Assembly: GCA_018238545.1 (NCBI GenBank)
Contig: JABCTC010000047.1
Location: 1-26,554 of the forward strand
DNA length: 26,554 nucleotides
Reading direction: 5' to 3'
From: Candidatus Heimdallarchaeota archaeon
GTDB lineage: Archaea > Asgardarchaeota > Heimdallarchaeia > Heimdallarchaeales > Heimdallarchaeaceae
The translations under genes and the position numbers were made by a program. A model generated the notes under the pieces. That model searched no databases. It had not been told where the DNA came from and saw only the letters and a list, made by a program, of their open reading frames with translations. Positions 5,265 through 26,154 of the stretch are shown here, one piece after another (the first letter of the stretch is position 1; the number at the start of each line of letters is the position of its first letter).

Positions 5265-6131
5265 ATGTCGAAATTCGATTTTAGTAATCAGAGTAATCTT
5301 TCTTCAACAAGGCTTGATATCATAATTCTCCATTCTCAGAAAGGTGGACCTGGAAAAACAACCCTTTCATGTAACATTGCAAAAGAACTGGCTAGAAGAG
5401 GTAATAAAACAGCAATAATAGATCTTGACATTGCACAACCGACAATACAGCACATATTTAACATAAAGGATAAAAAAATAAAACACACGATTAACGATAT
5501 TCTTCTTGGAGAAACTTCTGTATCTGAGGATGTCTTAAATAAAACAGATGACCCCAATTTATTTGTAATTGTAGCTAAAGAAAACGTAGAATATGGTGAA
5601 GGTTTACTTTCCATGTTAGAAGATATTCAGAAACATTCTTTCTTTGCTCTACATGAAATGACAAAGTTCCTATTAAGAATGGGCTTTAGATATGTGATTT
5701 ATGATTGTGCTCCTGGATATAAGCTTGAGTCAGTAAATGCTGCCGCTATAGCAGATGCTAGAATTTTTGTTTTAAGACCTTCTACTTTTAGTTATGAAGG
5801 AGCAAAGCAGATGCTTAATGATATCTACAAGAAGCTTAATATTCGTTCTCTAAATTTCTTTGTTTTCAATCAACTCCCCCCTAATCTAAAAAAAGAAAGC
5901 CAAAATTTGCTTAATTCATGGAGAGACGGGATAGTAAAACTTTATGAACCTGAAACTATGAACTTTCTTGACTTTCTTCCAATTTCTCATGAAATTATGG
6001 AGATGGCTCTCAAAGGAGAGTATATCTTTCCAGTATCAGATCCAATGTATGAAAAACTCACTAAAATAGTTGATACTGTTGTTGAAGCTATTGATGAGAT
6101 GAAAAAGGCAAAACTAAAAGAAGAGAAATGA
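5265..6131 (+). CDS. MinD/ParA-family (SIMIBI) ATPase
   Basis: Deviant Walker A SQKGGPGKTT, switch I IDLDIAQP and Walker B YVIYDCAPG. Confidence 0.9.
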   Translation: MSKFDFSNQSNLSSTRLDIIILHSQKGGPGKTTLSCNIAKELARRGNKTAIIDLDIAQPTIQHIFNIKDKKIKHTINDILLGETSVSEDVLNKTDDPNLFVIVAKENVEYGEGLLSMLEDIQKHSFFALHEMTKFLLRMGFRYVIYDCAPGYKLESVNAAAIADARIFVLRPSTFSYEGAKQMLNDIYKKLNIRSLNFFVFNQLPPNLKKESQNLLNSWRDGIVKLYEPETMNFLDFLPISHEIMEMALKGEYIFPVSDPMYEKLTKIVDTVVEAIDEMKKAKLKEEK

Positions 6132-6186
6132 TTTTCCTCTGCATCTGTGCTAAATTTTATATGTCACGATGTATTTATTATTATTG

Positions 6187-7170
6187 ATGAGCCAAATTGT
6201 TAAATTTCAATGTCCACATTGCAATGCACCTGTGGATGTTAATCCAGAAGATGCAGTGTTTAATTGTAATTCATGTGGTCAGGCTTTCTTGGCAGATGGG
6301 ACTGAATTCAAAAATCACTACATTCTCGACAACAAGCATAACCAGAACCAAATTCGAGACATTGTAAAGGGATTTATAAAGAAAAAAGGTTTCATGAGAG
6401 GGATTAAAGGTTACAAAATAACCAAACTTGAACCCATATTGATGCCATTTTGGGTAGCAACATCAGATGCTTATACTCACTATGTTGGGTATAAGAGATA
6501 CTCAGAAACAAGAACACGTACTGTAGGTTCAGGTAAAAATAGAAGAACTGTAACAGAAAGTGTGACAGTCTATCGTCCCGTTGATCAAGAAATTAGAGAA
6601 AAAAGAGCAGATGTTCTTCTAGGGAGAAGAGGAAGCTCTATGTATGGATATAGAAAAGTCAAACAGATTCTCCAAAGTGAATTTTCTCGTGCTGTTCCTT
6701 TCAACCATGATAGGTTGATGAATACTGAGAAAGAGTTTGAATATCTATCCACAGAAATTTCTTTAGATGCTGCGAATCAGTTAGCAAAAACTGCTGTTTT
6801 TGATGAACATAGATCAAGAGCAGAGAGAGCTTGTACTAAAGTATTTGACTGTGCCACACAAATAGCTTATACTGGTACATACTTCGTTCATACACCTGTG
6901 TGGCAAATTGAATATGTTTTTCAAGATGAGACTTACAGAATAGCTATTCTTGGAAGCAGTGGTAAAATTATAGCAGGAGAGATTCCTGTTACAACTCGAT
7001 TCAGAATGACATTCCTTGGAATTACAACCTTACTATTCTTAGGTGGAGGTGTTGGAAGTTATTTCTTAGGTGCTGATTATATAATACCCATTATTATTGG
7101 GGTTGTTGTCGCAATTATGGGTTTCTTCACGCTGAAAAACGTGTTTAAAACCGTGACGGTGGTGGATTAA
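6187..7170 (+). CDS. Zn-ribbon membrane protein (YdjG-like), paralogue 1
   Basis: N-terminal CPHC..CNSC, LMPFW, PVWQIEY...G.SGKIIAGEIP and two C-terminal TM helices. ATG 6187 is preferred because TATA-like TTTTATAT at 6155-6162 gives leaderless spacing (ORF track starts at 6169). Confidence 0.7.
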   Translation: MSQIVKFQCPHCNAPVDVNPEDAVFNCNSCGQAFLADGTEFKNHYILDNKHNQNQIRDIVKGFIKKKGFMRGIKGYKITKLEPILMPFWVATSDAYTHYVGYKRYSETRTRTVGSGKNRRTVTESVTVYRPVDQEIREKRADVLLGRRGSSMYGYRKVKQILQSEFSRAVPFNHDRLMNTEKEFEYLSTEISLDAANQLAKTAVFDEHRSRAERACTKVFDCATQIAYTGTYFVHTPVWQIEYVFQDETYRIAILGSSGKIIAGEIPVTTRFRMTFLGITTLLFLGGGVGSYFLGADYIIPIIIGVVVAIMGFFTLKNVFKTVTVVD

Positions 7171-7171
7171 A

Positions 7172-8164
7172 ATGAAAAGTATAATGTGCCCAAACTGTGC
7201 AGCTCCTTTAGAATTGGAGGATACTCAAACTCATGTAACCTGTCCTTTCTGTAGCGTTACAAGCGAGTTGAAGAAAGTTGATCAATTGATTGAACATTAT
7301 ATGCTGCCAGTAGTATATGATGTGGAACAAATTAGGACAGAATTAGCTGGTGACATTCTTAAAAGCCCAGGTACTCCTGATGATTTACACAAATCACTTA
7401 ACTTGAAGAAAGTTGATTTGAAATTCTATCCTTACTATATTGTAACCGTACACCTTAGAACTGAATACAAAGGTAATGGTGAATACGCAACATTCCATCA
7501 TCGTTACAAATCAGGATATAAGAGCATTGACATCCATCTCAAACCTGAACAAGGCGTTTTTGATGATGAGCGAGAATTCATAATTTGGGGTCCAAAAGAG
7601 ATTATCAACGATTTAATCAATTTCGAAATCTCCACACGTGGTAAGAGATACTTCCAAGCTTTAGAAGCTAAAAAAGTGAAAGCGAAAGTTGTGAAAACTG
7701 TGTTAGACGTGGAACAAGCTAAAGTCCAAGCTGTTGCTACTATGCGCGACATCCATAAGGGATTGATGTACAAAGAATTAGCTCAAATTCACGAAGTCAA
7801 AGACAAACCTGAAGTTAAGGGAATATATCTGTTGCACATACCATTCTACTTCTTAGAATTCGAAGTAAACAATAAGATGTATAAAGCAACCATGGATGCA
7901 GCAACTGGACGAACAGTAATCACACAAATACCTAGAGAGGGATCCTATTGGGTTATGATAGGTCTGTTATCCGCATTCTTTGGGATTATAGGAATCGCAG
8001 GTATATACTTTGCTGTTGCAGCTTCGCAAGATGCTTCATTTTTTGGCTTAGGTATAAACTGGGTTGGCATTTTTGCTGCAATTACAGGAATAGTATTCAC
8101 TGTGCGGACATTACTTCTAGGGCTTAGAACTAAATACAGAGAAACTAGAAGAAAGAAACGATAG
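7172..8164 (+). CDS. Zn-ribbon membrane protein (YdjG-like), paralogue 2
   Basis: N-terminal CPNC..CPFC, FYPYY, HIPFYFLEF...DAATGRTVITQIP and two C-terminal TM helices with a basic tail. It starts 1 nt after the paralogue 1 stop. Confidence 0.7.
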   Translation: MKSIMCPNCAAPLELEDTQTHVTCPFCSVTSELKKVDQLIEHYMLPVVYDVEQIRTELAGDILKSPGTPDDLHKSLNLKKVDLKFYPYYIVTVHLRTEYKGNGEYATFHHRYKSGYKSIDIHLKPEQGVFDDEREFIIWGPKEIINDLINFEISTRGKRYFQALEAKKVKAKVVKTVLDVEQAKVQAVATMRDIHKGLMYKELAQIHEVKDKPEVKGIYLLHIPFYFLEFEVNNKMYKATMDAATGRTVITQIPREGSYWVMIGLLSAFFGIIGIAGIYFAVAASQDASFFGLGINWVGIFAAITGIVFTVRTLLLGLRTKYRETRRKKR

Positions 8165-8228: not shown

Positions 8229-8972
8229 ATGGAAGAAAAAGTTCCTATATTTGTTGACTTTGGTGGTACTCTTGTCGATACAATTGATATAACAGTAGAG
8301 GTGTTTGAAGAAGTTTTGGGAAAGAAATTTTCTCATGATCAAGTTAAGAAAATGTACAAAGAAGCTTCTAGAAGAAAAATGAGCATGTTCATGTTTTTTA
8401 AATATCCAGTGAACCCTATTAAGCTCTATCTAAGAAAGAAGCAACTTCGACAATTACAAATAGAGAAATTTTTAGAAATCAAGAAATTAATACCTGAGAT
8501 AGAAGAGACACTCCAAAAAATTAAGAAACTTAAAAACATTGAACTTGTACTAGTTACACAAAACCCAACAATGGAAGATGAAGAGGTTGCTAATAAGGTT
8601 CTTCAGAATCTATTTGGTGATGATATGCCTTTTGATTTCCTATTAGCAGGTGAAGATAAAGTTGAATTGATTGCTACCAATTATGATACTGAAACTATTT
8701 CCAGATCAGTTTTAATAGGGGATTTGCCAAATGATGTCTTTGTTGCTAAAATTCTCCAAATTCCTTGTTTTGGCGTAACTTGGGGATACTCAGATGAGAG
8801 AGAACTTGATACTCCATTTATTGCTGATGAAGCTCATGAGTTATTAGATTTAGTCAAAGATCATCTAGAAGATTTAAAGGAAGACAAGGAAAAAGATGAT
8901 GCAATTGAAGAAATAGAGTTTGATGAATCTTTCCCTGAACTGAAAAAAGATTATGAACTTATTGGTGAATAA
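8229..8972 (+). CDS. HAD-superfamily hydrolase (phosphoglycolate-phosphatase-like) with an acidic tail
   Basis: Motif I variant VDFGGTLVD, motif II VTQN, motif IV IGDLPND and GVTWGY. The C-terminal ~40 aa are D/E/K-rich. Confidence 0.85.
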   Translation: MEEKVPIFVDFGGTLVDTIDITVEVFEEVLGKKFSHDQVKKMYKEASRRKMSMFMFFKYPVNPIKLYLRKKQLRQLQIEKFLEIKKLIPEIEETLQKIKKLKNIELVLVTQNPTMEDEEVANKVLQNLFGDDMPFDFLLAGEDKVELIATNYDTETISRSVLIGDLPNDVFVAKILQIPCFGVTWGYSDERELDTPFIADEAHELLDLVKDHLEDLKEDKEKDDAIEEIEFDESFPELKKDYELIGE

Positions 8973-8981
8973 GAATACCTG

Positions 8982-9305
8982 TCATTTACCAATTTCAAGA
9001 ATGTGATTAGCTACCAATTCAGTAACTTCAGGTATCTTAGGTCTTACTTTATCAAGAAGTATTTCAGAGCTTTTTTCTGAATCTTCTATTAACTTCATGT
9101 AATTAGAAGTGTCTTTCGCTTCTTCTACTTTCTTCTTGAGAATCTCTCTTGCTTCTGTTTTTGCATGCTCTAATCTTCTTATTCGATTGCTTTGTGCTTT
9201 CTCTATAACCAGCGCTGATTCTGTTTCCGCATCTTCTAGAATTTGTTCAGCACGTTGTTCAGCAACCTTTATTTGTTTTATCAGTTCATGTTCTAATGAT
9301 GGCAA
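8982..9305 (-). CDS. atpH: A/V-type ATPase subunit H/G (peripheral stalk)
   Basis: About 107 aa of coiled coil with IKQIKVAEQRAEQILEDA, in ATPase context. TTG 9305 follows SD AGGTGA at 9311-9316, and the ORF-track GTG at 9314 lies inside that SD. Confidence 0.8.
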   Translation of the reverse strand: MPSLEHELIKQIKVAEQRAEQILEDAETESALVIEKAQSNRIRRLEHAKTEAREILKKKVEEAKDTSNYMKLIEDSEKSSEILLDKVRPKIPEVTELVANHILEIGK

Positions 9306-10354
9306 ATATTTCACCTGATATAGCCTTTTTAACCAGCTATGTGAGAGGGCAATATGCTAAATTACTTACTCAAGAAGACTTTGAAAATTTAATAAATAAA
9401 CCTTATGAATTGTTCATTCAAGATTTATTAAGTTTTGAAATAGGTGAAAAATTGAAAGACCATCCTGAATATCAATCTCACCAATTAGAGAAATTGCTTA
9501 CAGCTAGCTTGCTAGATCAATATATGTTTATATTAAAATACTCTCCAAAGTGGTCTAAAGAGTTTTTTGAAGCGTATACTACCAAACTTGAAGTAATGAA
9601 CATTCAAAGAATTATAAGATATCTTTATTCTAAAGCAAAGGTGGATTTGAGAGAAGTAATCAATTTGAGACCACAAGAAATGCTTGGAAGAACAGCTTTC
9701 ATTTCGAAGCTAATCTTAGCAAAAGATTTAGCAGAACTTCTTGATTTACTTAAAGAATCTGAATACGGTGAAGAGATAGAAGTTGCTGAAAAGATGTACA
9801 CCAAAATCAATGACATTTGGCCATTAGAATTCGCAATAGAAGCATTTTATCTTAAAAAGATGATTTCCACAGCTGAGAAATTAAAGCTAAACCAAAGAAA
9901 AGGTGCTATGGCTTTTGTTAAGAATGAATTGCTAACCAATCTCTTACTAGTGATACTAAAAGCAGATTTTGTTGAAGTAGATATACAAGAAGCTTTGCAA
10001 CTAGTCCCCATACCTGAAGAATTTCCTTTCAGAAAGCAAATTCTCAAAATGATGAAGGATAATGATTTAAAGAGTGATCTAAAACTTCTGAAAACTTTTG
10101 CATCAGATAAGATTTCGAAAGGCATTGATATGTACCTTGAGGATAAGATGTTTTTGCATATCGAGATTGCAGTAAGAGCAAGCGAATTAGAGATAGTAAG
10201 AAATGCATTTCATTCTGATTTTGGGATTCATAGTATAATGTGCTATCTGAAGATGTATGAATCCCAGATTCAAGACATAAACAAGCTACTTTATCTAAAA
10301 GAATACAAGTTCCCTGTAGAGAAAACTAGGGAACTAGTTGTAAACTTAGTATGA
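9296..10354 (+). CDS. atpC: A/V-type ATPase subunit C (V0 d-like), on the opposite strand to its neighbours
   Basis: 352 aa. N-terminal VRG..KLLTQEDFENL, E..NI..IIR and C-terminal YL..YESQIQDI..L..K are typical of the AC39/C family. Confidence 0.85.
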   Translation: MMANISPDIAFLTSYVRGQYAKLLTQEDFENLINKPYELFIQDLLSFEIGEKLKDHPEYQSHQLEKLLTASLLDQYMFILKYSPKWSKEFFEAYTTKLEVMNIQRIIRYLYSKAKVDLREVINLRPQEMLGRTAFISKLILAKDLAELLDLLKESEYGEEIEVAEKMYTKINDIWPLEFAIEAFYLKKMISTAEKLKLNQRKGAMAFVKNELLTNLLLVILKADFVEVDIQEALQLVPIPEEFPFRKQILKMMKDNDLKSDLKLLKTFASDKISKGIDMYLEDKMFLHIEIAVRASELEIVRNAFHSDFGIHSIMCYLKMYESQIQDINKLLYLKEYKFPVEKTRELVVNLV

Positions 10355-10363
10355 TGATACTCG

Positions 10364-10828
10364 TTAAGCCAGATTAAGGAGAATGAATGCAATTAAAAGA
10401 CCATAAATTGCTAAAGCCTCACCTAGACCTAAATAGATAAGGTTTGGAGTGAAAACTTCAGAATTTGCAGTTAATGAACCAATTGCAGCAGGTTCTCCCT
10501 TGGTTAATGTTATCGCAGCTCCAATATTTGAAATGATCATTATGGCCATCGCTCCAAGGAAAATGTATCCTTGTGTTTCCGTGAATTCCACTAATCCAGC
10601 AATTGCATCGCTTATTTTTGTGTACATAATAAATGCAACCAATAGCCCATAAATAGCTAGAGCTTCAGCAAGCGCTAGATATATCAGAATGAAAATATTT
10701 AATTGTTGTTTTTCAGCTATAGCAGCAGCTGCAGCTTGAATCCCTTTAGCTAAAGGTACACCCGCTCCAATTATCGTGAGCATTGTACCAGCAATTGCAA
10801 TAATTCCTAATAGTATACTATTTACCAT
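10364..10828 (-). CDS. atpK: A/V-type ATPase proteolipid subunit K/c, duplicated (4 TM)
   Basis: Two hairpins, each with EALAIYGLL. The start overlaps the atpI end by 11 nt. Confidence 0.93.
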   Translation of the reverse strand: MVNSILLGIIAIAGTMLTIIGAGVPLAKGIQAAAAAIAEKQQLNIFILIYLALAEALAIYGLLVAFIMYTKISDAIAGLVEFTETQGYIFLGAMAIMIISNIGAAITLTKGEPAAIGSLTANSEVFTPNLIYLGLGEALAIYGLLIAFILLNLA

Positions 10829-12848
10829 CCTTACTCAAATCCATTGTTTTATTAAATATAAATATTGGTTTATGTTGTATTCCGCTACCTTCGTAGAATT
10901 TACTGAAAAATTCATAGAAATGTAATCTTAATGTTTGAACAAACACCAGTAACCCTTCTAGAACTAAAACAAAGATATTTCCGATTACTAGAATTAAAAT
11001 TTGCCATACAATAAAACCAGAAAGATTTGCTAATGTATTGATAACACTGAGAAACACAAAATGTGCAACAAGCATAGCCAGTATTCTGCCATAAGAAATA
11101 GTGTTGCTTATGAAAGAACTAAATGATTCTAATAAATTCATTACACCCATCCCAATTCCCCCAAAGAATTTTTTGAAAAAGTTTTTCCTCTCATCTTTTA
11201 TTATTAATGCAGCAATTCCTTGTCCGAAAAGTGCTAAAACAACTCCTATTAATAGTGCAACTATCCCCACTATAGAATCAATTTCTATTCCAAAGTCTAT
11301 AATGTTGAGAGAACTTAGGAAATAAAGAATTCCTGCATAAAGAAAAACTTGAGCTCCTGTTTCTTTTATTATGTCTTCAATTTCTTTATGTCTAATTTGA
11401 TTGATTAATCGAAGAGTCAGTCCTAACGTCAATTGTATTGCACCAATAATAAGTACAAGATTGAAAATTTCAATTAGATTATCGACTGGATTTAAAATAG
11501 GATAGTGTACACCAAACAATTTAGGATCAGTCCAATTAAAAATATCCTGAGAAATCTCATATCCAAAAAATTCACCGAAGATAAACGCTCCCAAAATAAA
11601 GGAAGCTAACCCTAGGGAGAAAACCAAAATAAACATCGTACGAATATTTCTCTTCAACCCCTTAGCTAGCATCCCCAATAATCCTATTAGCATAAAAATT
11701 AACCCATGCCCAGCGTCACCAAACATTATTCCATAGAAAAGACTAAATGTAAAAATAAAGAAAATTGTTGGATCTACCTCTTTTGACGAAGGTAAACCAT
11801 AAAGACCAACAATAGATTGAAATGATCTCATTATGGGGTTTCTAGCTTGTTTTATTGGAACATTTCTTGTTTCTTCTTCAGGTTCTTCTGTTTCGAAAAC
11901 TGTTTCAGAGAAATCTGAAATAAACTCTTTGATATAATTTTGATCCTTTTGAGCAATCCACCCTTGGAAAATCACTGTTCTTTTTGTTTTCTTTGAAGTT
12001 ACGTAAATCCGAAGTAACTGTTTGTAACTCTCAATTGATAATCGTAAAGCCATTATTTTTTCCTTATTTTGAATAGTATATTGCTTTGAATCTTCATCAA
12101 GTTTCTTGATTTCCTTCTCTAAATCCTTGGTTCCTTTCTCAATTTCCTCCTCAATTTCTAACTTACTCCAATGGATAGGTCCAGTATGTTTGTGATCCAT
12201 CCATCGAACTGTCGATATTGTTTTGAGAAATCTTGTAATCTCTCCCTTTTTGCCTTGAGCATAAATCAGAAATTTATTATGAACTAATGGAATGACTTCT
12301 TTTTTTGATAAATCACTTACAAACTCTTCAGCATCTGATGCTTTTGATGTTGTCAATATTCCTACAATAGCTCTTTCTTTTTCATTAACTTGATACGGAA
12401 ACTCTTCTTCAAGTAATCTGAAACCTTTGGAGATTAAGTTCTTTGTTTCGAGTTCATTTTGAATAGTTTCTGTTCTTGACATAAGTTCATGTATTTCTTT
12501 CTTTGTTTTTTCTATTTTTTCGATAATCTGTATCTCAATTTCTTCAATATTTTCCCAATTAGTAAATAATGGGTCTAAAGGTGGGATTTTTCGATAAGCT
12601 CTAGCTATTTTTTGTACTAGTTTCTCTTTGGGTTCAGGAAGTGTTTTTAACAAATCTTCAAACGAGCTCTCTATTCGTCTGATCGAATCAAGTTTGGTTG
12701 TTGGAGAATAGTCTTCTAAATCCTCATCTATTGTAGTTTCTTTCGGCATGAATTTTTCAGTTTCCGCTAGCTGAATTATTAATTTGGGAAAATCTTCTAT
12801 TGGAACTATGATTGTTGCCTTCAGCATCGTTTGTGGAAATAAACCCAT
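10818..12848 (-). CDS. atpI: A/V-type ATPase subunit I/a
   Basis: YGLPSSKEVDPT, GIMFGDAGHG, ISYGRILA (stator Arg) and QTLRLHFYEFFSKFYEG. SD AAGGTGA upstream. Confidence 0.95.
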   Translation of the reverse strand: MGLFPQTMLKATIIVPIEDFPKLIIQLAETEKFMPKETTIDEDLEDYSPTTKLDSIRRIESSFEDLLKTLPEPKEKLVQKIARAYRKIPPLDPLFTNWENIEEIEIQIIEKIEKTKKEIHELMSRTETIQNELETKNLISKGFRLLEEEFPYQVNEKERAIVGILTTSKASDAEEFVSDLSKKEVIPLVHNKFLIYAQGKKGEITRFLKTISTVRWMDHKHTGPIHWSKLEIEEEIEKGTKDLEKEIKKLDEDSKQYTIQNKEKIMALRLSIESYKQLLRIYVTSKKTKRTVIFQGWIAQKDQNYIKEFISDFSETVFETEEPEEETRNVPIKQARNPIMRSFQSIVGLYGLPSSKEVDPTIFFIFTFSLFYGIMFGDAGHGLIFMLIGLLGMLAKGLKRNIRTMFILVFSLGLASFILGAFIFGEFFGYEISQDIFNWTDPKLFGVHYPILNPVDNLIEIFNLVLIIGAIQLTLGLTLRLINQIRHKEIEDIIKETGAQVFLYAGILYFLSSLNIIDFGIEIDSIVGIVALLIGVVLALFGQGIAALIIKDERKNFFKKFFGGIGMGVMNLLESFSSFISNTISYGRILAMLVAHFVFLSVINTLANLSGFIVWQILILVIGNIFVLVLEGLLVFVQTLRLHFYEFFSKFYEGSGIQHKPIFIFNKTMDLSKDGK

Positions 12849-12857
12849 TTTATCACC

Positions 12858-13493
12858 TTAGTTGAATAAATATTCGTTTATTTTTGTTCTAATTGTGTCT
12901 TTGCTTTCCTCTAATAGATATTCTATTGTATAATCTATTCTAACTCGTTCTTCTTTATCTGTAAGAATAAACCCCCCAGATGTTATTAACTCTGTTATTT
13001 CTATAATGAATTTCACGTTCTTTTCTTTTTCTAGTTTTTTAACAATTTGTGTAATTACTCTTTCATCTCTTTTGTCGATTAGAAGTTTCATTTCTTTAGA
13101 TTGAAAAGCCCTTTGAGTTGGTTCTAGCTTGCTTTCTAGATACTTTTTGTAATTTGAATTTTTTCTAAAATTTGACAAATCTTTCTCAATTTTTTCAAAG
13201 ACTTCATCAATTAGTTTCTCTTTGGTTTGGATTTTTATTCTTTTAGCTTTTTGTTGATATTCAGCTTCTGTTCTCTTTCTAATGTATTCTAAATGAGATA
13301 GTTCTTTTTCCAGTTCTTTCTGTTTTATTTCTGAAACAAGTTCCTTTGTTTCTTTCTCAAAGTTTGCAAGCTTTTTTCGAGTTTCTTCCCTCATTCTCTC
13401 AGCTTCATTTTCTGCTTCAGAGATAATTTTCTTCAGTAGATTATCTAAGTTTGTAGAGGGATGTTCTTCTTTTTGTTTTTGTTTATCTACCAT
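12858..13493 (-). CDS. atpE: A/V-type ATPase subunit E
   Basis: N-terminal coiled coil (KIISEAENEAERM) and C-terminal SGGFIL...RIDYT...I..YLF. ATG 13493 is preferred over GTG 13502, which looks like part of the SD. Confidence 0.88.
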   Translation of the reverse strand: MVDKQKQKEEHPSTNLDNLLKKIISEAENEAERMREETRKKLANFEKETKELVSEIKQKELEKELSHLEYIRKRTEAEYQQKAKRIKIQTKEKLIDEVFEKIEKDLSNFRKNSNYKKYLESKLEPTQRAFQSKEMKLLIDKRDERVITQIVKKLEKEKNVKFIIEITELITSGGFILTDKEERVRIDYTIEYLLEESKDTIRTKINEYLFN

Positions 13494-13503
13494 TTTTATC
13501 ACT

Positions 13504-13932
13504 TCAAACTGGATAGAGGAGTACTGGAATCGATGCTAGCTCAATAACGTATCTAATATGGTTTTTTAACAATCTCTTTGCCATCCTCTCTCTTTTCGTA
13601 CCCATTGCTATAAAATCTACTTTTTCTTTCAATGATGCTTTAATAATTGATTCTGATATTATACCTGTTTCAATACTAGACGTAATATAAAGATGAGAAT
13701 CAGAATAAATGTTAACTAGCTTATTCAATATATTTTCACTTTCAGCTTTGCACTTATTTTCTACATCTTCTATAGATTCCCCTCTAAAGTCTGCTAGATG
13801 TTGAACCGTTTCGCTATCAATAACATTGATGAGATGAATCTCAGTAACCCAGTCATCAAAAAAGTCGATGATCTGTTTGATCATGCTTATTCCACTTTCA
13901 AAATCACCTATAGCTACTAGTGCTTTTTTAAT
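13504..13932 (-). CDS. Universal stress protein (UspA family) inside the ATPase operon, probable ATT start
   Basis: IHLINVID, I...S.KEKVDFIAMG and V...ASIPVLL motifs. The frame extends upstream of ATG 13884 to IKKALVAIGDFES, the expected USP first strand, giving 142 aa from ATT 13932. Confidence 0.82.
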   Translation of the reverse strand: MKKALVAIGDFESGISMIKQIIDFFDDWVTEIHLINVIDSETVQHLADFRGESIEDVENKCKAESENILNKLVNIYSDSHLYITSSIETGIISESIIKASLKEKVDFIAMGTKRERMAKRLLKNHIRYVIELASIPVLLYPV

Positions 13933-14578
13933 TGTGAACGCCTCTTTTTCTCAATTTTTTCTCTTCTAACTTACTTTTCAATTTCTTAATAGTGTAAATG
14001 TTCTCTAATTCGTATGATTCAAGAGATTCTTCGATAAATTTGATTATATTTCGAAATCTCACTCTATACACTTTATCTAAAGCATTCAGATTTAGTTGTA
14101 TTGATTGTAAATTGTTCATGATTCTAAAAGCAAGACTCTCAATTTCTGCAAGCTGAATAATTAGATGAAATGTGTCTCTGAACCTTTCTGCTGTTACCCA
14201 TAAAAGACTTGATATTCCAAAAAACCCATAGGATGTATCAGGTAGTTTTTCTACCTCTAAATTCACGTAATCAACTCCCATATACTCTGTAGCCATAGAT
14301 TGAATCTCAACTTCCTTAGGTATTGTGTCACTGAAAACATTAATCATTTCTCTTCCAAGTTCAGATTCTGTTTTGATATATTCAATGTAAGCTTCACTCA
14401 GGCATTTTTCCATCTCAGTTCTTAAAGTAGCAATCTCTGCAGTTATTATATGTAATTTCATTAGGAGAGCTTCATATTTTTCTCGTAAAAGATCATATGC
14501 CCTTTCAACCAACTTTAGTTTCCTCTTATATTTGAGCAAATTATCTTTTGTTGGTGAAATGGTGATAGCTTCTCTCAT
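13928..14578 (-). CDS. atpD: A/V-type ATPase subunit D
   Basis: SPTKDNLLKYKRKL...AYDLLREKYEAL, YMGV and LNAL motifs. ATGA overlap with the atpB stop. Confidence 0.92.
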   Translation of the reverse strand: MREAITISPTKDNLLKYKRKLKLVERAYDLLREKYEALLMKLHIITAEIATLRTEMEKCLSEAYIEYIKTESELGREMINVFSDTIPKEVEIQSMATEYMGVDYVNLEVEKLPDTSYGFFGISSLLWVTAERFRDTFHLIIQLAEIESLAFRIMNNLQSIQLNLNALDKVYRVRFRNIIKFIEESLESYELENIYTIKKLKSKLEEKKLRKRGVHN

Positions 14579-15969
14579 TTGTCTTTTTCAACTCGATCGA
14601 ATAGCTGTTTCTCAATTTCCTCTGATGATAGTTTAGTAAGTTCTGATATTGGAAGTAATGACAAAAGAGACCACCCTAATTCTAATGACTCTTGCATCGT
14701 TCGGCGAGCGTCTCCTTGATTAATAAATAATTCTTCGAATTTCTCGGAAAATTCTAAATAAATTTGATCAATACGATTTAATTCTTTCTTGCCAATTACC
14801 TCAGCTAGATTCCTTTTATCTAACCCCATAGCATATGCTGCATATAACTGATCGCTTAAACCTGGATGATCTTTTCTTGTATGTCCTTCCCCAATTCCAT
14901 CTTTCATAAGCCTAGAAAGTGAACCTAAAACATCTATGGGAGGATAAATTCCGCTGGTATGAAGTGATCTGTCTAGAATAATTTGTCCCTCTGTTATGTA
15001 ACCAGTTAAATCAGGGATTGGGTGGGTTATATCATCATTTGGCATTGTCAAATTTGCTAAAAGGGTTATACTACCATTTGAACCCTCTATTATGCCTGAA
15101 CGTTCGTAAAGTGATGCTAAATCGCTATACATGTATCCAGGAAAACCTTTTCTTGCTGGCACTGTTTCTAAAGCAACAGAAACTTCTCTTAGTGCTTGAC
15201 AATAGTTGGTGATATCTGATAAAATAGTAAATACGTGATAATCTTTCTCAAAAGCTAAATATTCCGATGTTGTTAAAGCAACTCTGGGTGTAAGAAGTCT
15301 TTCAGCAGCTGAATCACTTGCTAGATTAACAAACATTACAACCTTATCTAGGGTTCCAGTTTCCTTAAATAAACGTTGGAAATAGATATGATCGTCCATT
15401 GTTAACCCCATTGCACCAAAAACAATTGCAAATTTTTCACCTTTATCTTCTTCAGCAATTCTTGCGTGTCTGACTATCTGTCCAATAACTCTATTGCTGG
15501 GCAATCCTGCACTTGTAAACACAGGGAGTTTTTGTCCTCGAACAATAGTGTTCATCAGATCAATTGCAGATATGCCTGTTTCAATGTAATTTTTAGGATA
15601 AACTCTTGAAGTTGGATTGATTGGAGCACCATTAACATCTAGGAATTCATCTGAATAAACTGCAGGGAGTCCATCAAGAGGTTCCCCAAGAGAATTAAAT
15701 GTTCTTCCAATCATACTCTCTGAAACAAAAAGTTGCATTGTTCTTCCAAAGAACTGTGTTTCTATGTCATCCTTATCTATTTCATAGGTTCCTTGGTATA
15801 ATAGAATTATTACTCTTTCTTCCTCAATAGCTAAGACTCTTCCTTTACGAATTTGACTATCATGAATTTTGACTTCTAAATATTCTCCCATTTGTATTCC
15901 AGATACTCCATCGACAACTATCAATGGTCCTCGAATTTCCGAAACCCCTTTAACAGTTATTCTTGCCAT
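14575..15969 (-). CDS. atpB: A/V-type ATPase subunit B
   Basis: ETGISAID, RGQKLPVF, PARKGFPGYMYSDL, DDITHPIPDLTGYITEGQI and SLSRLM. The true start is likely ATG 15969 (MARITVKG), 7 nt after the atpA stop. Confidence 0.96.
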   Translation of the reverse strand: MARITVKGVSEIRGPLIVVDGVSGIQMGEYLEVKIHDSQIRKGRVLAIEEERVIILLYQGTYEIDKDDIETQFFGRTMQLFVSESMIGRTFNSLGEPLDGLPAVYSDEFLDVNGAPINPTSRVYPKNYIETGISAIDLMNTIVRGQKLPVFTSAGLPSNRVIGQIVRHARIAEEDKGEKFAIVFGAMGLTMDDHIYFQRLFKETGTLDKVVMFVNLASDSAAERLLTPRVALTTSEYLAFEKDYHVFTILSDITNYCQALREVSVALETVPARKGFPGYMYSDLASLYERSGIIEGSNGSITLLANLTMPNDDITHPIPDLTGYITEGQIILDRSLHTSGIYPPIDVLGSLSRLMKDGIGEGHTRKDHPGLSDQLYAAYAMGLDKRNLAEVIGKKELNRIDQIYLEFSEKFEELFINQGDARRTMQESLELGWSLLSLLPISELTKLSSEEIEKQLFDRVEKDK

Positions 15970-15976
15970 TATGTTA

Positions 15977-18900
15977 TCAAATCCTGTACCCACATTTGGA
16001 GCCAACTTCTTCCATTTCGGAATGGATATAATCTTCAATCTTATTCAATTGCATAAGATCCTCATTGCTAACATCTTCCTTCATTCTCTTAAGAAATTGA
16101 ACAGATTTCAATGAGATAATTGACGAAATAGGACACCCATTTTTAATAAGGATGTCAGCTCTTTGATAGAAAAGAAGTATTAACTTCATCATTTTCATTT
16201 GTTTATCTATTGGGCAAAAAGTATCAACTGGATGAAAAGCGCTTTGTTGTAGTATCCCACTTTTGATTATATCTGCTATCAGAATTATCAGTTGTTCATC
16301 TGAAGGAAGTGCTTTTGATCCTATTAGCTCAACAATATGTTGCAATTCTTCATCTTTTAGCAGTAATTTCATCATTTCTTGACGATATCGCCCCCAATCT
16401 TCTAAACCGGATTCAAGGGCCCATTCTTCTATCTCAGATATATATCCAGAATAGCTGTTTAACCAGTTAATTGCAGGAAAATGTTTTCTGTTAGCTAAAG
16501 TTGAATCCAATCCCCAAAACGTTTTAACGAATCTCTTTGTGTTTGCTGTTACTGGTTCACTAAAATCTCCACCTGGTGGTGAAACAGCAGCAGTGATATT
16601 GATTGAACCTTCACGATATGGAGAACCAATTGGTATAACCTTACCAGCTCTTTCATAGAAATTCGCTAACCTTGCACCTAGGTAAGCAGGAAAACCTTCC
16701 TCTACAGGTAACTCTGCTAATTGTCCTGATATTTCCCTTAAAGCTTCAGCCCATCTACTTGTACTGTCCGCTGTTAATAGCACCGCATATCCTTGATCAC
16801 GATAATATTCTGCCATTGTTATTCCCATATAGATGGATGCTTCCCTAGCAGCTACAGGCATATTGGAAACATTTGCTACAAGAATTGTTCTTGCCATTAA
16901 TGGATTGTTTGTATAAGGATCAATTAATTTTGGAAACTCCCTTAATACATCTGTCATTTCATTCCCTCGTTCTCCACATCCTATATAGACGACAACGTTA
17001 GCATTGCTCCACTTTGACATTTGGTGCTGAATGACTGTGTTATGAAGGATAAATGGCTCATTTCCGCCTATAAAATTGTGATATTTCTCGACAACTAGAT
17101 CATAAACTTCTTCATCCCAATTTAACAATTCTATTAATTTTACTTCATCAAAATAAAATTCTGAATGTAGTTGCTTGATAGAATCTAACCTTTGAACCAA
17201 AGCCGTAGATTCTTCAGGACTATCATGCTGATTCTGTTCTTTTATTATATGTATTATATTTTCTAAAGTTTTGTTTGTGATTTTCCTTCCCATTGAAACA
17301 TTTTTGATAGCAGTAAGAGCTTTTGATTTCCTAGGGTTGGAATGTGAGTTGATAAATAATTTCTTACTTTCAGTTAAGAGATTTATACTAATAGGGATAG
17401 CATCAGAAGAAACAAAATGATCAATATTTTTTATTGTATAACTATAAATTTTCTTTGTCTTTTTATATTCTGTTACACCGTGTATCTTGAATAGATGTCC
17501 TAATTCTTCTAATTGGGAACCTTCAACTGATATTCTATAATATTCATGATCCTTAACAGTCTGCTTAGTTTTTCTATATATAATGTTCAATCTGCTTAAT
17601 ATATAACACAATCCTGAAGAAATGCTCTTACTTGCTGTTGCAATCTCTAATGTATATCCCTTTACATAACCATCCCCGGCTATGTAAGCGTTCAGAAAAT
17701 GTATCAAATCTTCATCCTCAGACATTTGAATCAAATCAGGTATAGACGCAGTTCTAGATTTCTTTTCTGAAGGGAAATTAAGGTATTGAAGGAAAATTCC
17801 AACGGGTCTAGAGTAGAATACAGTTGTTTTAACATTGTTCTCGACCCTTTCTTTAGATTTTGAATCAAACAGAAGTTGAACAAGTGTTGAAAACCTCTCT
17901 CTAATATGATTATCATTGTTATATAGATACATTGTTTTGTAATTAGTTACTCTTCCATCAGATAGCAGCAATCCAAGAAATTCTGCTAATTCTGGATTCA
18001 TCTTATTGGGTAGTTTAACACTCTCACTTTGCCTTTCAGCTTTAACAGTCTTAAAATTGATTTCTTGTTTTGTTATCCTTTGAAGTTTTTTTATAAATCT
18101 CAATGTTGGATTATTTATACCATAATAAAACCCATTAAAAACATCAGCTGAAACATTTAATTTTTCTGCCATCTGTATAAGCGAAATATTATTCAAAGTA
18201 ATATATTTATCAACACTTTCTCTGATTTCCCTTATAGCCGTTTTATCAGCTGTTCGTAAAGAATCAGCTATATCATAAACATTTATTTTCTTTCTTTTGA
18301 TGTTCTTATAATGATAGCTCAGTTTTCTCGGACTTAAAACAAAATCACCGACATTAAGTTTTTGAGATTCTTTTTCTATAATTTCTTTTCCATCGAAAAT
18401 TTGCAACTTATGGAGTGGTGTTAAGGTTACACTTCTTCCTTTCTTTGTAGTAACTCTTATCATTTTGCTGCTGTAACCTTTGTACAAATGAGTAGCCTTG
18501 CCTTCAGTCAAAGATCCATCTTTTTGATTGAATGATAATACTCTTAGAGGTTTCTTTAGCCTTATCAAAGTTTCATCCTCAGAATCTTTCTCAACTAGGT
18601 TATCACCATTTAGAGCTTCTTTATACAAATCTTCAATCTTCTCTAGATTTCCTTCTTTGCGCAGAATTAATGTATCACCAGATACACATTTACCTGTTCC
18701 AAAACCTCCTGGAATTGCTGCAGTTCCTCCTTTTGCTATTGGGAAAAACATATCTATGATTCTCTGACCCGTGATGAGAGGTTCTGATACAGGTAATTTG
18801 GTTGCAAATGGTCTTGCGATTCTTACAGGCCATTCATGCATTAAACTTAATTCTTTTCTCATCCCATCATTGTTCTTGGATAGAAGAATTGGTTCAATAA

Positions 18901-19429
18901 TAGTATAATCACCCTTCTCCTGAATCTCAATTAGCTCTCCAGAGAAGTCAGGAGGAGCCAAAATTTTGCTGATGATTGTCTTTGTTTCTTGAACTTCTCC
19001 AAGAATATCCCCCCCATGAATAATATCTCCTTTCTTAATTTCTTTATTAGGTTTAAATTGCCATTTCTTTTGTCTGTCTAGCGCATTTGTTCTAATCCCT
19101 CTTTTAATGAAATCTGATTTTGAAATTTGCTTAATCCTATCTAATGGTCGTTGTATGCCATCAAAAATATTAGAGAGCAATCCAGGTCCCAACTCAGCTG
19201 TTAATGATTTGCCTGTAGGATAGACTGGGTCGTTTATTCGTAATCCTTCAACAGACTCATAGACCTGAATTGTGGCAACATCTCGCTCTATTACGATTAC
19301 TTCGCCTACTAATCGTTCCTCTCCCACGTAAGTAATTTCACCCATTCTGTATGAAGAAAGACCCTTAACTTGGACTATTGACCCGTTTATTGAAACAATA
19401 CGGGCATCCTCTTCCTTAATGACAGACAT
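15977..19429 (-). CDS. atpA: A/V-type ATPase catalytic subunit A, intein-containing (600-aa extein plus 550-aa intein)
   Basis: [15 protein letters not shown], Walker A GGFGTGK|T split by the insert, [22 protein letters not shown] and [12 protein letters not shown]. Confidence 0.97.
17039..18688 (-). mobile_element. Intein with LAGLIDADG homing endonuclease in the AtpA Walker A motif
   Basis: Starts CVSGDT (residue 248). Block B TPLHK, block F VYDLVV and terminal HN followed by Thr+1. LAGLIDADG motifs [12 protein letters not shown] and [10 protein letters not shown]. 1650 nt, and removal restores GGFGTGKTV. Confidence 0.95.
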
Positions 19430-19522: not shown

Positions 19523-19834
19523 ATGGCTGACCTTGGAACTACCAAGAAAGCATTTGTTATCGGGGCAAGAGAAACTGTAAGGGGTTTCAATTTAATTGGT
19601 GTTCCAGGAAAAGAAGTCAATGATTCAGCTGAAGTCATGGAAACATTGGAAGAAGTGCTTGAACAAGATTATAGCGTCATAATTCTCTCTGCTTCTTGCA
19701 CATTTGAAATCGAGAATCAGATAATCGAATTAAGAAAGAATGTTCAAACTCCTATAATAATAGTTTCGGACGTCAATATGCAAGTTGATATTAAACAAAT
19801 AGAGAAGCAATTTAGATCATTTGTTGGTATTTAA
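19523..19834 (+). CDS. atpF: A/V-type ATPase subunit F, divergent from atpA
   Basis: VIGARETVRGFNLIGV, DYSVIIL, PIII and C-terminal VGI. 103 aa from ATG 19523. Confidence 0.9.
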   Translation: MADLGTTKKAFVIGARETVRGFNLIGVPGKEVNDSAEVMETLEEVLEQDYSVIILSASCTFEIENQIIELRKNVQTPIIIVSDVNMQVDIKQIEKQFRSFVGI

Positions 19835-23394: not shown

Positions 23395-26154
23395 ATGTCC
23401 CCACCAAAAAAAATTGATAAGAAAAGTGGAAAGAAAAAGAGAGTTAAATACAGTGAGGACGATTTATCAAAATTTGCTCAACAATTCGAGATTTCGTATG
23501 AATCCGATAAAGAGAAATTTGTGAGTGATTTAGCTATTAAAGGTCAGAACCTTTTGAAAGAAGGTAAATATAACGAATCTGAAGAAATATGCGGATTCTT
23601 ACTGAGCGTTGGTAAACAGTGGAAAGATAATTTTACAATAATGAAATCTTTACTTCTAAAAGCCCAATTAGGTTCCAGTTTGAATCAGGAAACTATAGTC
23701 TTCCTAGCTAAAGCTTTGTCTCTTGCTAAGAAATTAAAATATAATGAGATTATTGTTGGTGTAAGAGTTCAGCTAGCCTATGAATACTTCCATCAGAGGG
23801 ATTTTAAGAAGGTTCTTAAACAAATTGCAGAAATCGAAAAATATGAACCATTGGGTCTTGAAAATTCTAAGGTTATCTATGAGTTGAAATCGAGATGTTA
23901 TTGGGAGGAAGATGATTATATCAAAGGATTTGATGCAACATACAACTGGTTCGGTTATCTTAAAGAAACAGATGATGTGCATTCAATGTTTATTGTAATA
24001 GTATATCTTTTAACCGTTGTATCATCATTAGATTTGCCGATAATTAAAGAAAAAATAAATGAGATTAAAAAAGAAATTGCGCAAGTTTTAGCAAATCTTG
24101 CTACATCTCCTCACCTATTTCAAAACCTTATACCTAATATTGAAACACTATTTGCAAAATCATTAATGATGGTTCATCCTGAGGTTCTCTATGAGTTTGC
24201 AGATATGTTTTTGCAAACAGTTAGGTGGATGGACGAGGAAAAATTCCTATATTCGTGTCTGAAACTTGCAGATGCTTTTTACAAAATTAATGATTCTAAA
24301 AAAGCAGTGGAAATAATTGATAAAGGTAAAGAGTTCATAAAAGATAAGAAATATGATAAACTGGATAATAAAATAAATCTGAAGAAAGTAGAATTTACAA
24401 GTCTAATATTCTATTTTATGTCTTTTGACCCTCTTTACGACCCGCTCAGTATCGAGAGTATTAATATTATTGAGGATGAAGTCCAATCTGATTATTTCCT
24501 TAAAACATTTTACGCTCCAATTAACAGCTATGCATCTACATCTTACTCTCAGTTCCTTAGAATCTTGGAAAAAGCAAAGACAAATAGGCTAACAAAGGAA
24601 AAATCATTGCAGATAAACGGGTTATCTGACGAAGAAGAAAGAAAGTACTTTGTATTGCGGTTAATCCTAGCTAATAAAATGATTGATATTTTATTCAGAG
24701 AAGATTTCCAAATAGATGAGAACATATCAAATACACTACATTCGACAGTTTCTCCATTTTATTCAGTTATTGGTGTTCTTTCAGCAGAAAAGGGAGAAAA
24801 AATCACGGATGTTGAGGAAATGGAACGCATTCTGCTTGAAATACAAAGAGCAATTAATTGTCCTGCTTCAATTGCTGAGATTATTTTTCCAAGTAAACAC
24901 CCACACTTGGATCTTTTACGCTTCTCATCTAATGATGGAGGTTTCAAAGATCTCCAAGAAAAAATTCTAAGTTGTGCTTTAAGTTTAAAGCATAAATATC
25001 CTTTTTTGCGTAACCTTAATTTTCTACAGATTTTTCAAAGCGATCCTATTACTCTATTTGATTTTTCATTGCGAGAACCACATCAGCTTGAACCTTTGTC
25101 TGTTCTATTGAGTAGAGCATCTGGTTTGGATTTTACAAATGAAACTCTAAGTGATCTATTTAAAGATACAATGAATTTATTTTTGCAGAAAGGGGATACT
25201 AGATATTGGAAGGATTTCTTCTACCAGTATGCTTGGTTACAACAGCGTGGAATATATCTTAATCTTTCTGAAGAATTTATTGAGAGAAAAAATAAACTAG
25301 CTGACGATCTTATCCTTCTAGCAGATAAACTGCAAGAAGAAGAAAATATTCTTGAGAGTAGATATTATAGATTGTTTCTGCAATTAACAAGTGAATTTAC
25401 AAGTTATCAAGAATTTCTAGATGACTTTCTGACGCTTGTTAAAAAGTATGAGAATAAGAAATATGAGGTAATATCAAAAATTCTTGCAAAATTATTCGCT
25501 AAAGAGGATTTTTCTTTAGAAGCTACACTTTCAGATTCCTTTGATTTGTTTTGTGAACTTTGTTCTTCAAAAGATTGGAAAAAAACTCTAGAACTGTTCT
25601 TACATTTTGTTTCTAATGTCCCCAACTTATCTAAACTGTTAGAAGTCTGTGAAAAGAAAGAAATTAAAGATACAGGCTTCTTAATCTATCTAAACTTAGT
25701 TAAACATTTTATTAGAGAAGATCAACCAGATTCAGCTTTTAGTATATTAAAATGGTTAATTGTAAGTTTAACAGAAAGGAAGAAGCATTTCGATTTACCT
25801 GAACACACTTGGAATTATCTTTTTGTGACAGCGAATACTTTTTTGTATGATCTCCTACCTATTCTAGACGAGAGTGAACTCAAAAATATGAATTATTCAA
25901 GAAATAAGGTTGTTGATAATTTACTGGAAAATTATGATTGGATTATCGATCCTACCTTTTTAGTGAAAATTCTTCTAGAAAAGATTACTGCATTGCTTCA
26001 AAAGAGCGATTTTGCTCTTGCAGAGAGGTTTTATTCTTGGATTGAGCAATTAATGTTTTACCACTGGAACATATTCACTTCCAAAGAACATAAAGATTTA
26101 CTTGAGAAAATACAAGAAACAAAGAAAGAGATAGTTAGTCAACATTTCACATGA
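23395..26154 (+). CDS. Large hypothetical alpha-helical-repeat (TPR-like) protein, 919 aa
   Basis: Long intact ORF with a Lys-rich N-terminus and TPR-like helices (LAKALSLAKKL, LKLADAFYKIND..KAVEI). No catalytic motif was recognised. Confidence 0.7.
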   Translation: MSPPKKIDKKSGKKKRVKYSEDDLSKFAQQFEISYESDKEKFVSDLAIKGQNLLKEGKYNESEEICGFLLSVGKQWKDNFTIMKSLLLKAQLGSSLNQETIVFLAKALSLAKKLKYNEIIVGVRVQLAYEYFHQRDFKKVLKQIAEIEKYEPLGLENSKVIYELKSRCYWEEDDYIKGFDATYNWFGYLKETDDVHSMFIVIVYLLTVVSSLDLPIIKEKINEIKKEIAQVLANLATSPHLFQNLIPNIETLFAKSLMMVHPEVLYEFADMFLQTVRWMDEEKFLYSCLKLADAFYKINDSKKAVEIIDKGKEFIKDKKYDKLDNKINLKKVEFTSLIFYFMSFDPLYDPLSIESINIIEDEVQSDYFLKTFYAPINSYASTSYSQFLRILEKAKTNRLTKEKSLQINGLSDEEERKYFVLRLILANKMIDILFREDFQIDENISNTLHSTVSPFYSVIGVLSAEKGEKITDVEEMERILLEIQRAINCPASIAEIIFPSKHPHLDLLRFSSNDGGFKDLQEKILSCALSLKHKYPFLRNLNFLQIFQSDPITLFDFSLREPHQLEPLSVLLSRASGLDFTNETLSDLFKDTMNLFLQKGDTRYWKDFFYQYAWLQQRGIYLNLSEEFIERKNKLADDLILLADKLQEEENILESRYYRLFLQLTSEFTSYQEFLDDFLTLVKKYENKKYEVISKILAKLFAKEDFSLEATLSDSFDLFCELCSSKDWKKTLELFLHFVSNVPNLSKLLEVCEKKEIKDTGFLIYLNLVKHFIREDQPDSAFSILKWLIVSLTERKKHFDLPEHTWNYLFVTANTFLYDLLPILDESELKNMNYSRNKVVDNLLENYDWIIDPTFLVKILLEKITALLQKSDFALAERFYSWIEQLMFYHWNIFTSKEHKDLLEKIQETKKEIVSQHFT

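Follow-up and report, generated by a model that had tools for sequence, protein, structure and literature searches.

The genes for subunits C and H of a second A/V-type ATPase in Heimdallarchaeaceae, atpC and atpH, lie head to head, and each appears to carry the promoter of the other within its own coding sequence. Comparison with related genomes shows that the layout is real, well conserved and unusual, and it is likely explained by reciprocal, face-to-face intragenic promoters. The locus was analysed as part of a stretch of 26,554 nucleotides, referred to below as the window, for which a first-pass annotation was available.

Genes of the locus

A gene for a HAD-family hydrolase (8229-8972, plus strand; PF13419 above cut-off) is followed by atpH (8982-9305, minus strand), which has a TTG start and encodes a 107-aa protein assigned as peripheral-stalk subunit H/G from weak G/H HMM matches, a long-helix model and a model of its complex with subunit E. 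The gene for subunit C/AC39, atpC (9299-10354, plus strand; 351 aa, PF01992 above cut-off), is without a Shine-Dalgarno (SD) motif and is predicted to be leaderless. Beyond it, atpK (10364-10828, minus strand; PF00137 in two stretches) encodes a two-hairpin proteolipid with Glu in both hairpins. The main operon, atpA (with an intein)-B-D-USP-E-I, was assigned by Pfam and gene order (10818-19429, minus strand) and runs on into atpK; a leaderless atpF is located at 19523-19834 on the plus strand (weak NCBIfam F matches). When coordinates and strands were rechecked, atpC (+) was found between atpK (-) and atpH (-), as the first-pass annotation had placed it; at atpK/atpC/atpH, functionally related genes of one orientation are thus interrupted by a gene on the opposite strand. 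The cluster would be transcribed as four units: atpF (+), atpA-B-D-usp-E-I-K (-), atpC (+) and atpH (-).

The earlier annotation had also drawn attention to the convergent gaps HAD/atpH and atpC/atpK. Both are indeed 9 nt long, but they are not special: gaps below 10 nt account for a third of the convergent junctions in the genome (186/571), a baseline that rules them out as a signal. Only within the genus is the HAD gene found convergent with atpH. Other genes take its place in loci L076 and L110, where a co-oriented dehydrogenase gene comes after atpH, and it is not next to atpH in the sister-genus genome G042. HAD was therefore rejected as a component of the system. Upstream of HAD, and conserved there in the genus, are a MinD/ParA-like ATPase gene and, after it, two genes for paralogous zinc-ribbon membrane proteins (5265-8164). 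Elsewhere in the window, a 919-aa ORF (23395-26154) has no Pfam match, and a gene of similar size is found at the same place in L112.

At the other end of the cluster, atpF and atpA form an ordinary back-to-back divergent pair with a gap of ~90 nt, so that an intragenic promoter is unneeded at this junction; almost all of the 21 loci compared have a TATA box for atpF at about -29.

The second A/V-ATPase

By its encoded sequences, the cluster is predicted to be a second, complete and deeply divergent nine-subunit A/V-ATPase that is restricted to part of Heimdallarchaeaceae. All of the subunits A, B, C, D, E, F, G/H, I and K were found, seven of them by Pfam matches above cut-off (A, B, C, D, E, I and K; the same holds for USP and HAD), and F was identified with PF01990 on orthologues. 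Walker A and GERGNE are intact in A (with the intein removed in silico), as are the carboxylate in K and the conserved Arg in I.

For atpH, only sub-threshold G/H HMM matches were obtained, and Foldseek and PDB sequence searches gave nothing significant. The protein is modelled as a long helix with two short helices. Modelled together with the cluster's subunit E, it scored 0.65 versus 0.02 for the best control, with contacts agreeing to at least 89% and a partner pLDDT of at least 84; the score mark is reached by 58 of 80 solved pairs and 2 of 110 mismatched pairs. E and G/H are a textbook subunit pair, so the score is evidence of likeness, not of binding.

Two A/V-ATPase sets are encoded in the genome. 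The genes of the resident set are dispersed across contigs C21, C102 and C18; atpI and atpC of this set share one orientation, as they do in the order's other genomes. The window's set occurs in this genus and in one genome of the sister genus, and is absent from the family's two single-contig genomes. Its subunit B shows 70-94% identity within the group and ~55% to everything else; in a tree built without an outgroup, it forms a long-stemmed clade, with no donor identified. A second Heimdallarchaeia ATPase was not found described in the open-access literature searched.

The atpA-B-D-USP-E-I order is the same in L022, L061 and L110-L114, and the USP gene (13504-13884) separates atpD from atpE in all copies of the cluster that were seen, even in the most distant ones, L110 and L111; USP homologues start ~16-19 codons before the window's first ATG. 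In atpA (15977-19429), a LAGLIDADG intein directly follows the Walker A lysine; it is present in L022 and absent from the orthologues in L061 and L110-L113 (~600 aa). Within atpI, an 11-mer at 10921-10931 (minus strand TTAAGATTACA, Leu-Arg-Leu-His codons) is invariant in 20/20 genomes, with low synonymous change. It lies ~100 nt before atpK and may serve as an internal promoter, as a processing signal or as a promoter for antisense transcription. Near the resident atpK and atpI-atpC (G000:C21:35122-53748) are genes that, judged by translations only, look Vps4/ESCRT-III-, actin- and prefoldin-like; the resident atpI is 1065 aa long versus ~700 aa in other families of the order.

The head-to-head overlap and its conservation

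The coding sequences of atpC and atpH overlap head to head by 7 nt (9299-9305, both strands) in 30/30 loci, some of which are near-redundant. This confirms the overlap described in the first-pass annotation, except that the second ATG at 9296 is not conserved and was rejected as the atpC start. A start at GTG 9314 was likewise rejected, being the SD itself. That motif, AGGTGA (9311-9316, minus strand), is complementary to the 3' end of the genome's 16S and does lie, as had been noticed, inside atpC Ser-Pro codons, with minus-strand 9316-9311 the reverse of Ser5-Pro6. Its variants across loci are GGTGA, GGAGA and GGGGA, with spacing unchanged, and the start codon of atpH is TTG in 22, GTG in 5 and ATG in 3 of the 30 loci.

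Looking for the overlap in related genomes had been proposed as a check, and it is present throughout those that have the gene. Orthologues of atpC were found in 21 of 24 genomes of the genus (identity 61-100%), and in all 21 atpH overlaps atpC head to head. The locus is long enough to show HAD and atpK too in 20 of the 21, and the full HAD(+)/atpH(-)/atpC(+)/atpK(-) layout is seen in 20 genomes of this one Heimdallarchaeaceae genus. The overlap also occurs in G042 and on further contigs, and the source annotation of L110 and L113 calls the same 7 nt. For a genome baseline, a simple gene caller was used (3306 genes). Of 532 divergent pairs, the gap is negative in only 3 and below 20 nt in 5; the two negative-gap pairs besides atpC/atpH look like mis-called starts. 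The head-to-head overlap is exceptional in this genome, and the 9-nt convergent gaps are ordinary.

Predicted promoters within coding sequence

The predicted atpC promoter is a BRE and TATA box at 9258-9275 on the plus strand (TTTATTTG, TATA 9268-9275), within atpH codons ~11-16; the predicted atpH promoter is a BRE and TATA box at 9393-9410 on the minus strand (TTTATTTA, TATA 9400-9393), within atpC codons ~32-37. Archaeal promoter elements of this type have been described (PMC7289017). One option in the first-pass annotation was that each promoter lies within the coding sequence of the opposite gene, TTTATTT at 9268-9274 being a possible promoter of atpC. This is now strongly supported, and the atpH promoter can be placed at 9400 (-). 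Each site combines a TATA box, an A-rich BRE upstream, genome-typical spacing and conservation at the nucleotide level. Across the genome's genes, TATA boxes peak 29-30 nt ahead of the start codon (the leaderless class) and SD motifs at -8 to -14; TATA-to-start spacing is ~29-31 nt, and the atpC TATA at -31 is on the shoulder of the -29/-30 peak.

Sites were scored with a BRE/TATA matrix built, from crude gene calls, on other genes of this genome, atpC not among them. The scores are 7.5 at + 9268 and 6.3 at - 9400; unconserved sites, such as + 9326, reach equal values, and a single matrix score therefore means little. When conservation of the promoter score over 20 genomes is used instead, the atpC site ranks first and the atpH site second of 7902 positions. 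Two high-scoring TATA-like sites are not claimed: + 9326, which is not conserved, and - 10862 before atpK, which passes in 11/20 only.

Synonymous changes, counted by parsimony in 1496 six-codon windows of eight genes (median ratio 0.92), point to the same two places. There are none in atpH codons 10-15 versus 22.7 expected, the lowest of the 1496 windows, and two in atpC codons 32-37 versus 19.9 expected, the second lowest. The genomes are related and Poisson p-values overstate these differences; the rank order and the case of L110 do not rest on formal p-values and so are independent of them. The TATA 8-mer of atpC is identical in 30/30 loci, and that of atpH has C as its first base in one genome (L010). 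The Lys13 codon of atpH is AAG in 20/20 genomes, where the genome uses AAA at 73%. In L110, the most distant relative (atpH 40% identical), amino acids have changed at both sites and both TATA boxes are at unchanged positions: the atpH TATA is kept as TTTTTTAA despite N33K and P35G in atpC, and one TATA variant is exchanged for a higher-scoring one. Both boxes are also retained in G042.

Predicted transcripts, their overlap and their ends

If the predicted elements are used, TBP/TFB at TATA 9268 would direct a leaderless atpC mRNA from ~9298-9299, and TBP/TFB at TATA 9400 (-) would direct an atpH mRNA from ~9370, with a ~65-nt leader that contains the SD. A polymerase from either promoter would have to cross the promoter of the opposite gene. 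Because the coding sequences share 7 nt, expression of both genes would necessarily give transcripts that overlap to some extent; by TATA positions and spacing, the two mRNAs would be complementary at their 5' ends over ~72 nt (9298-9371, both strands), a region that takes in the ribosome entry sites of both, with the two translation starts and the atpH SD. Some mutual damping would be expected, by collision or promoter dislodgement, by duplex formation and possibly by RNase III cleavage.

A candidate RNase III of 238 aa is encoded in the genome (G000:C40:8099-8815; L130:200-916). It has the signature motif, a PF00636 match above cut-off and a TIGR02191 match over its full length (150 bits, cut-off 166), and it could act on the predicted atpC/atpH overlap. 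Homologues are found in 36 of the 46 genomes of the order, including genomes without this ATPase cluster. Archaea are usually said to be without RNase III (PMC11404451); an earlier search for the enzyme in Asgard archaea exists (bioRxiv 10.1101/2023.12.14.571608).

The most likely termination sites of the messages are U-tracts within the neighbouring gene on the opposite strand, where aCPSF1, which the genome encodes, would act. The first-pass annotation saw no terminator at the convergent junctions; this overlooks archaeal termination, which uses U4 tracts and aCPSF1 and in M. maripaludis is leaky, with a median efficiency of 30-55% (PMC8716108). Two U4 tracts on the minus strand (10325-10322 and 10300-10297), 39 and 64 nt beyond the stop codon of atpK, form a candidate terminator of the A-K message in antisense atpC. 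A U4 tract near the first position is present in 17/20 genomes, partly dictated by atpC codons, and antisense atpC has 14 U4 tracts altogether (7-20 across genomes). In G042, the gap between atpC and atpK is 80 nt, with U-tracts on both strands. Some transcriptional leak is possible. The first U4 tract available to the atpC mRNA lies ~260 nt into antisense atpK, and the message may run that far before ending.

Comparison with known systems

In coliphage 186, the convergent promoters pR and pL face each other some 60-70 bp apart and transcribe through each other, as proposed here. They form a lysis/lysogeny switch with one strong and one weak promoter, whereas the present locus concerns a housekeeping-type complex and has similarly scoring promoters, both within coding sequence.

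The geometry is already known from bacterial divergent excludons (PMC12288877), in which divergent genes have overlapping 5' ends (PMC12288877, PMC7154746). Like these, atpC and atpH are divergent neighbours with a 5' transcript overlap, here predicted, and with interference and RNase III as candidate mechanisms. Unlike them, the locus has archaeal TATA/BRE promoters, overlapping coding sequences, one mRNA that is predicted to be leaderless and two products that belong to one complex; mutual exclusion is a feature of the bacterial examples. The non-contiguous operon menE-menC-MW1733-ytkD-MW1731 of S. aureus (PMC7154746) likewise has an opposite-strand gene between co-oriented, functionally related genes, but here the gene downstream is served by a conserved promoter of its own, the intervening gene codes for another subunit of the same complex and read-through lacks support. 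Second A/V-type ATPase sets are also known from hadopelagic Thaumarchaeota (PMC6863869). The present cluster resembles these and other archaeal A/V-ATPase operons in its nine subunits, its intact catalytic motifs and its position as a second set beside a resident one; it differs in having four predicted transcription units on both strands rather than one operon, a long-stemmed clade of its own and an embedded USP gene. In the open-access literature searched, we found no description of archaeal face-to-face promoters, of archaeal excludons or of an ATPase example.

Alternative explanations

Conservation of the layout across genomes excludes an assembly inversion or mis-called start codons, to which we give a negligible probability. 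The source genome is a MAG and many divergent overlaps turn out to be wrongly called starts (PMC2478687, on overlaps >60 nt), but the arrangement recurs in 21 genomes that were assembled independently and whose atpC is as little as 61% identical, in the sister genus and on other contigs, and the atpH start alternates solely among TTG, GTG and ATG. Alternatively, an RNA element or a site bound by a protein could underlie the synonymous constraint, with the real promoters further off. Such a reading gains from the evidence being sequence alone and from TTTATTT not being the commonest TATA form in the genome; it is nevertheless highly improbable, as both sites fit the genome-derived matrix on the expected strand, one of them is at leaderless spacing from the atpC ATG, and L110 replaces one TATA variant by a higher-scoring one. 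A non-contiguous operon, raised in the first-pass annotation, would have the A-K mRNA run antisense through atpC to deliver atpH, and a HAD mRNA run through atpH into atpC. The tight convergent gaps and the leakiness of U-tract termination in M. maripaludis (PMC8716108) would suit this, and the atpH SD is weakly compatible with it, since 261/651 operon-internal genes have an SD motif as against 143/1064 first genes, in a comparison that is partly circular. Read-through is poorly supported and improbable all the same: atpC and atpH each have a conserved promoter, so that atpH has no need of it; the U4 tracts of antisense atpC, the wider G042 gap with its U-tracts and the presence of aCPSF1 also count against it; HAD is replaced beside atpH in L076 and L110, where the dehydrogenase gene is co-oriented after it; and gaps this short are commonplace.

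Reciprocal intragenic promoters thus being preferred, sequence by itself cannot separate lock-in from selected regulation as the reason for their persistence. Most likely, rearrangement and loss of intergenic DNA were followed by a state in which neither gene could be moved without promoter loss. A second pair in the genome, EMC6-like/rqc2 (NFACT; G000:C119:52702-55124, L131), is divergent with a 20-nt gap that holds SD-like motifs for both directions. In the 18 genomes compared for this pair, the design is the same. The EMC6-like gene contains a TATA-like site for rqc2, and codons 35-42 of rqc2 contain a conserved TATA on the opposite strand, in a stretch whose synonymous change ranks with the lowest of 393 windows; the rqc2 intragenic site is absent in the three genomes with a gap of ~220 nt. 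Each gene of this pair appears to carry its partner's promoter, and the recurrence of the design in this genus favours lock-in after compaction over an ATPase-assembly device; a locked-in habit of the lineage is likelier than ATPase-specific control. For a third tight divergent pair (C86), a DNA query found no relatives. The mutual antisense control tuning ATPase assembly that the first-pass annotation suggested is possible, and a version of it would refine the best explanation rather than exclude it: with the same architecture, the overlap would be a selected device, an archaeal divergent excludon in which interference and RNase III set the C:H ratio or switch assembly. We regard this as rather unlikely. 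The predicted overlap spans both initiation sites, most genomes of the order (36/46) have an RNase III homologue, in atpH the constraint (codons 15-17) goes beyond the usual BRE by a few bases on its upstream side, and the geometry is retained while atpH identity drops to 40%. Yet expression from excludons is mutually exclusive (PMC12288877), and here both products are required at once; the same design is found at the non-ATPase EMC6-like/rqc2 pair; leaderless spacing and SD spacing alone account for the invariance; and genomes that lack the cluster encode RNase III as well.

Implications

To our knowledge, gene regulation in Asgard archaea is almost unmapped. The locus offers two precisely placed, evolutionarily supported predicted promoters and, spanning the two start sites, an RNA duplex predicted for the 5' ends, and is suited to asking, by silent mutations, whether archaeal polymerases interfere face-to-face and whether RNase III acts on mRNA overlaps. 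It is unlikely, in our estimate, that Heimdallarchaeaceae combine face-to-face intragenic promoters and RNase III into excludon-type control, balancing or gating assembly of the second rotary ATPase at atpC/atpH; if they do, it would mean dsRNA-based regulation of mRNA in a lineage close to eukaryotes. If the overlap is merely a locked-in accident, the locus would still be a clear case of compaction embedding promoters in coding DNA.
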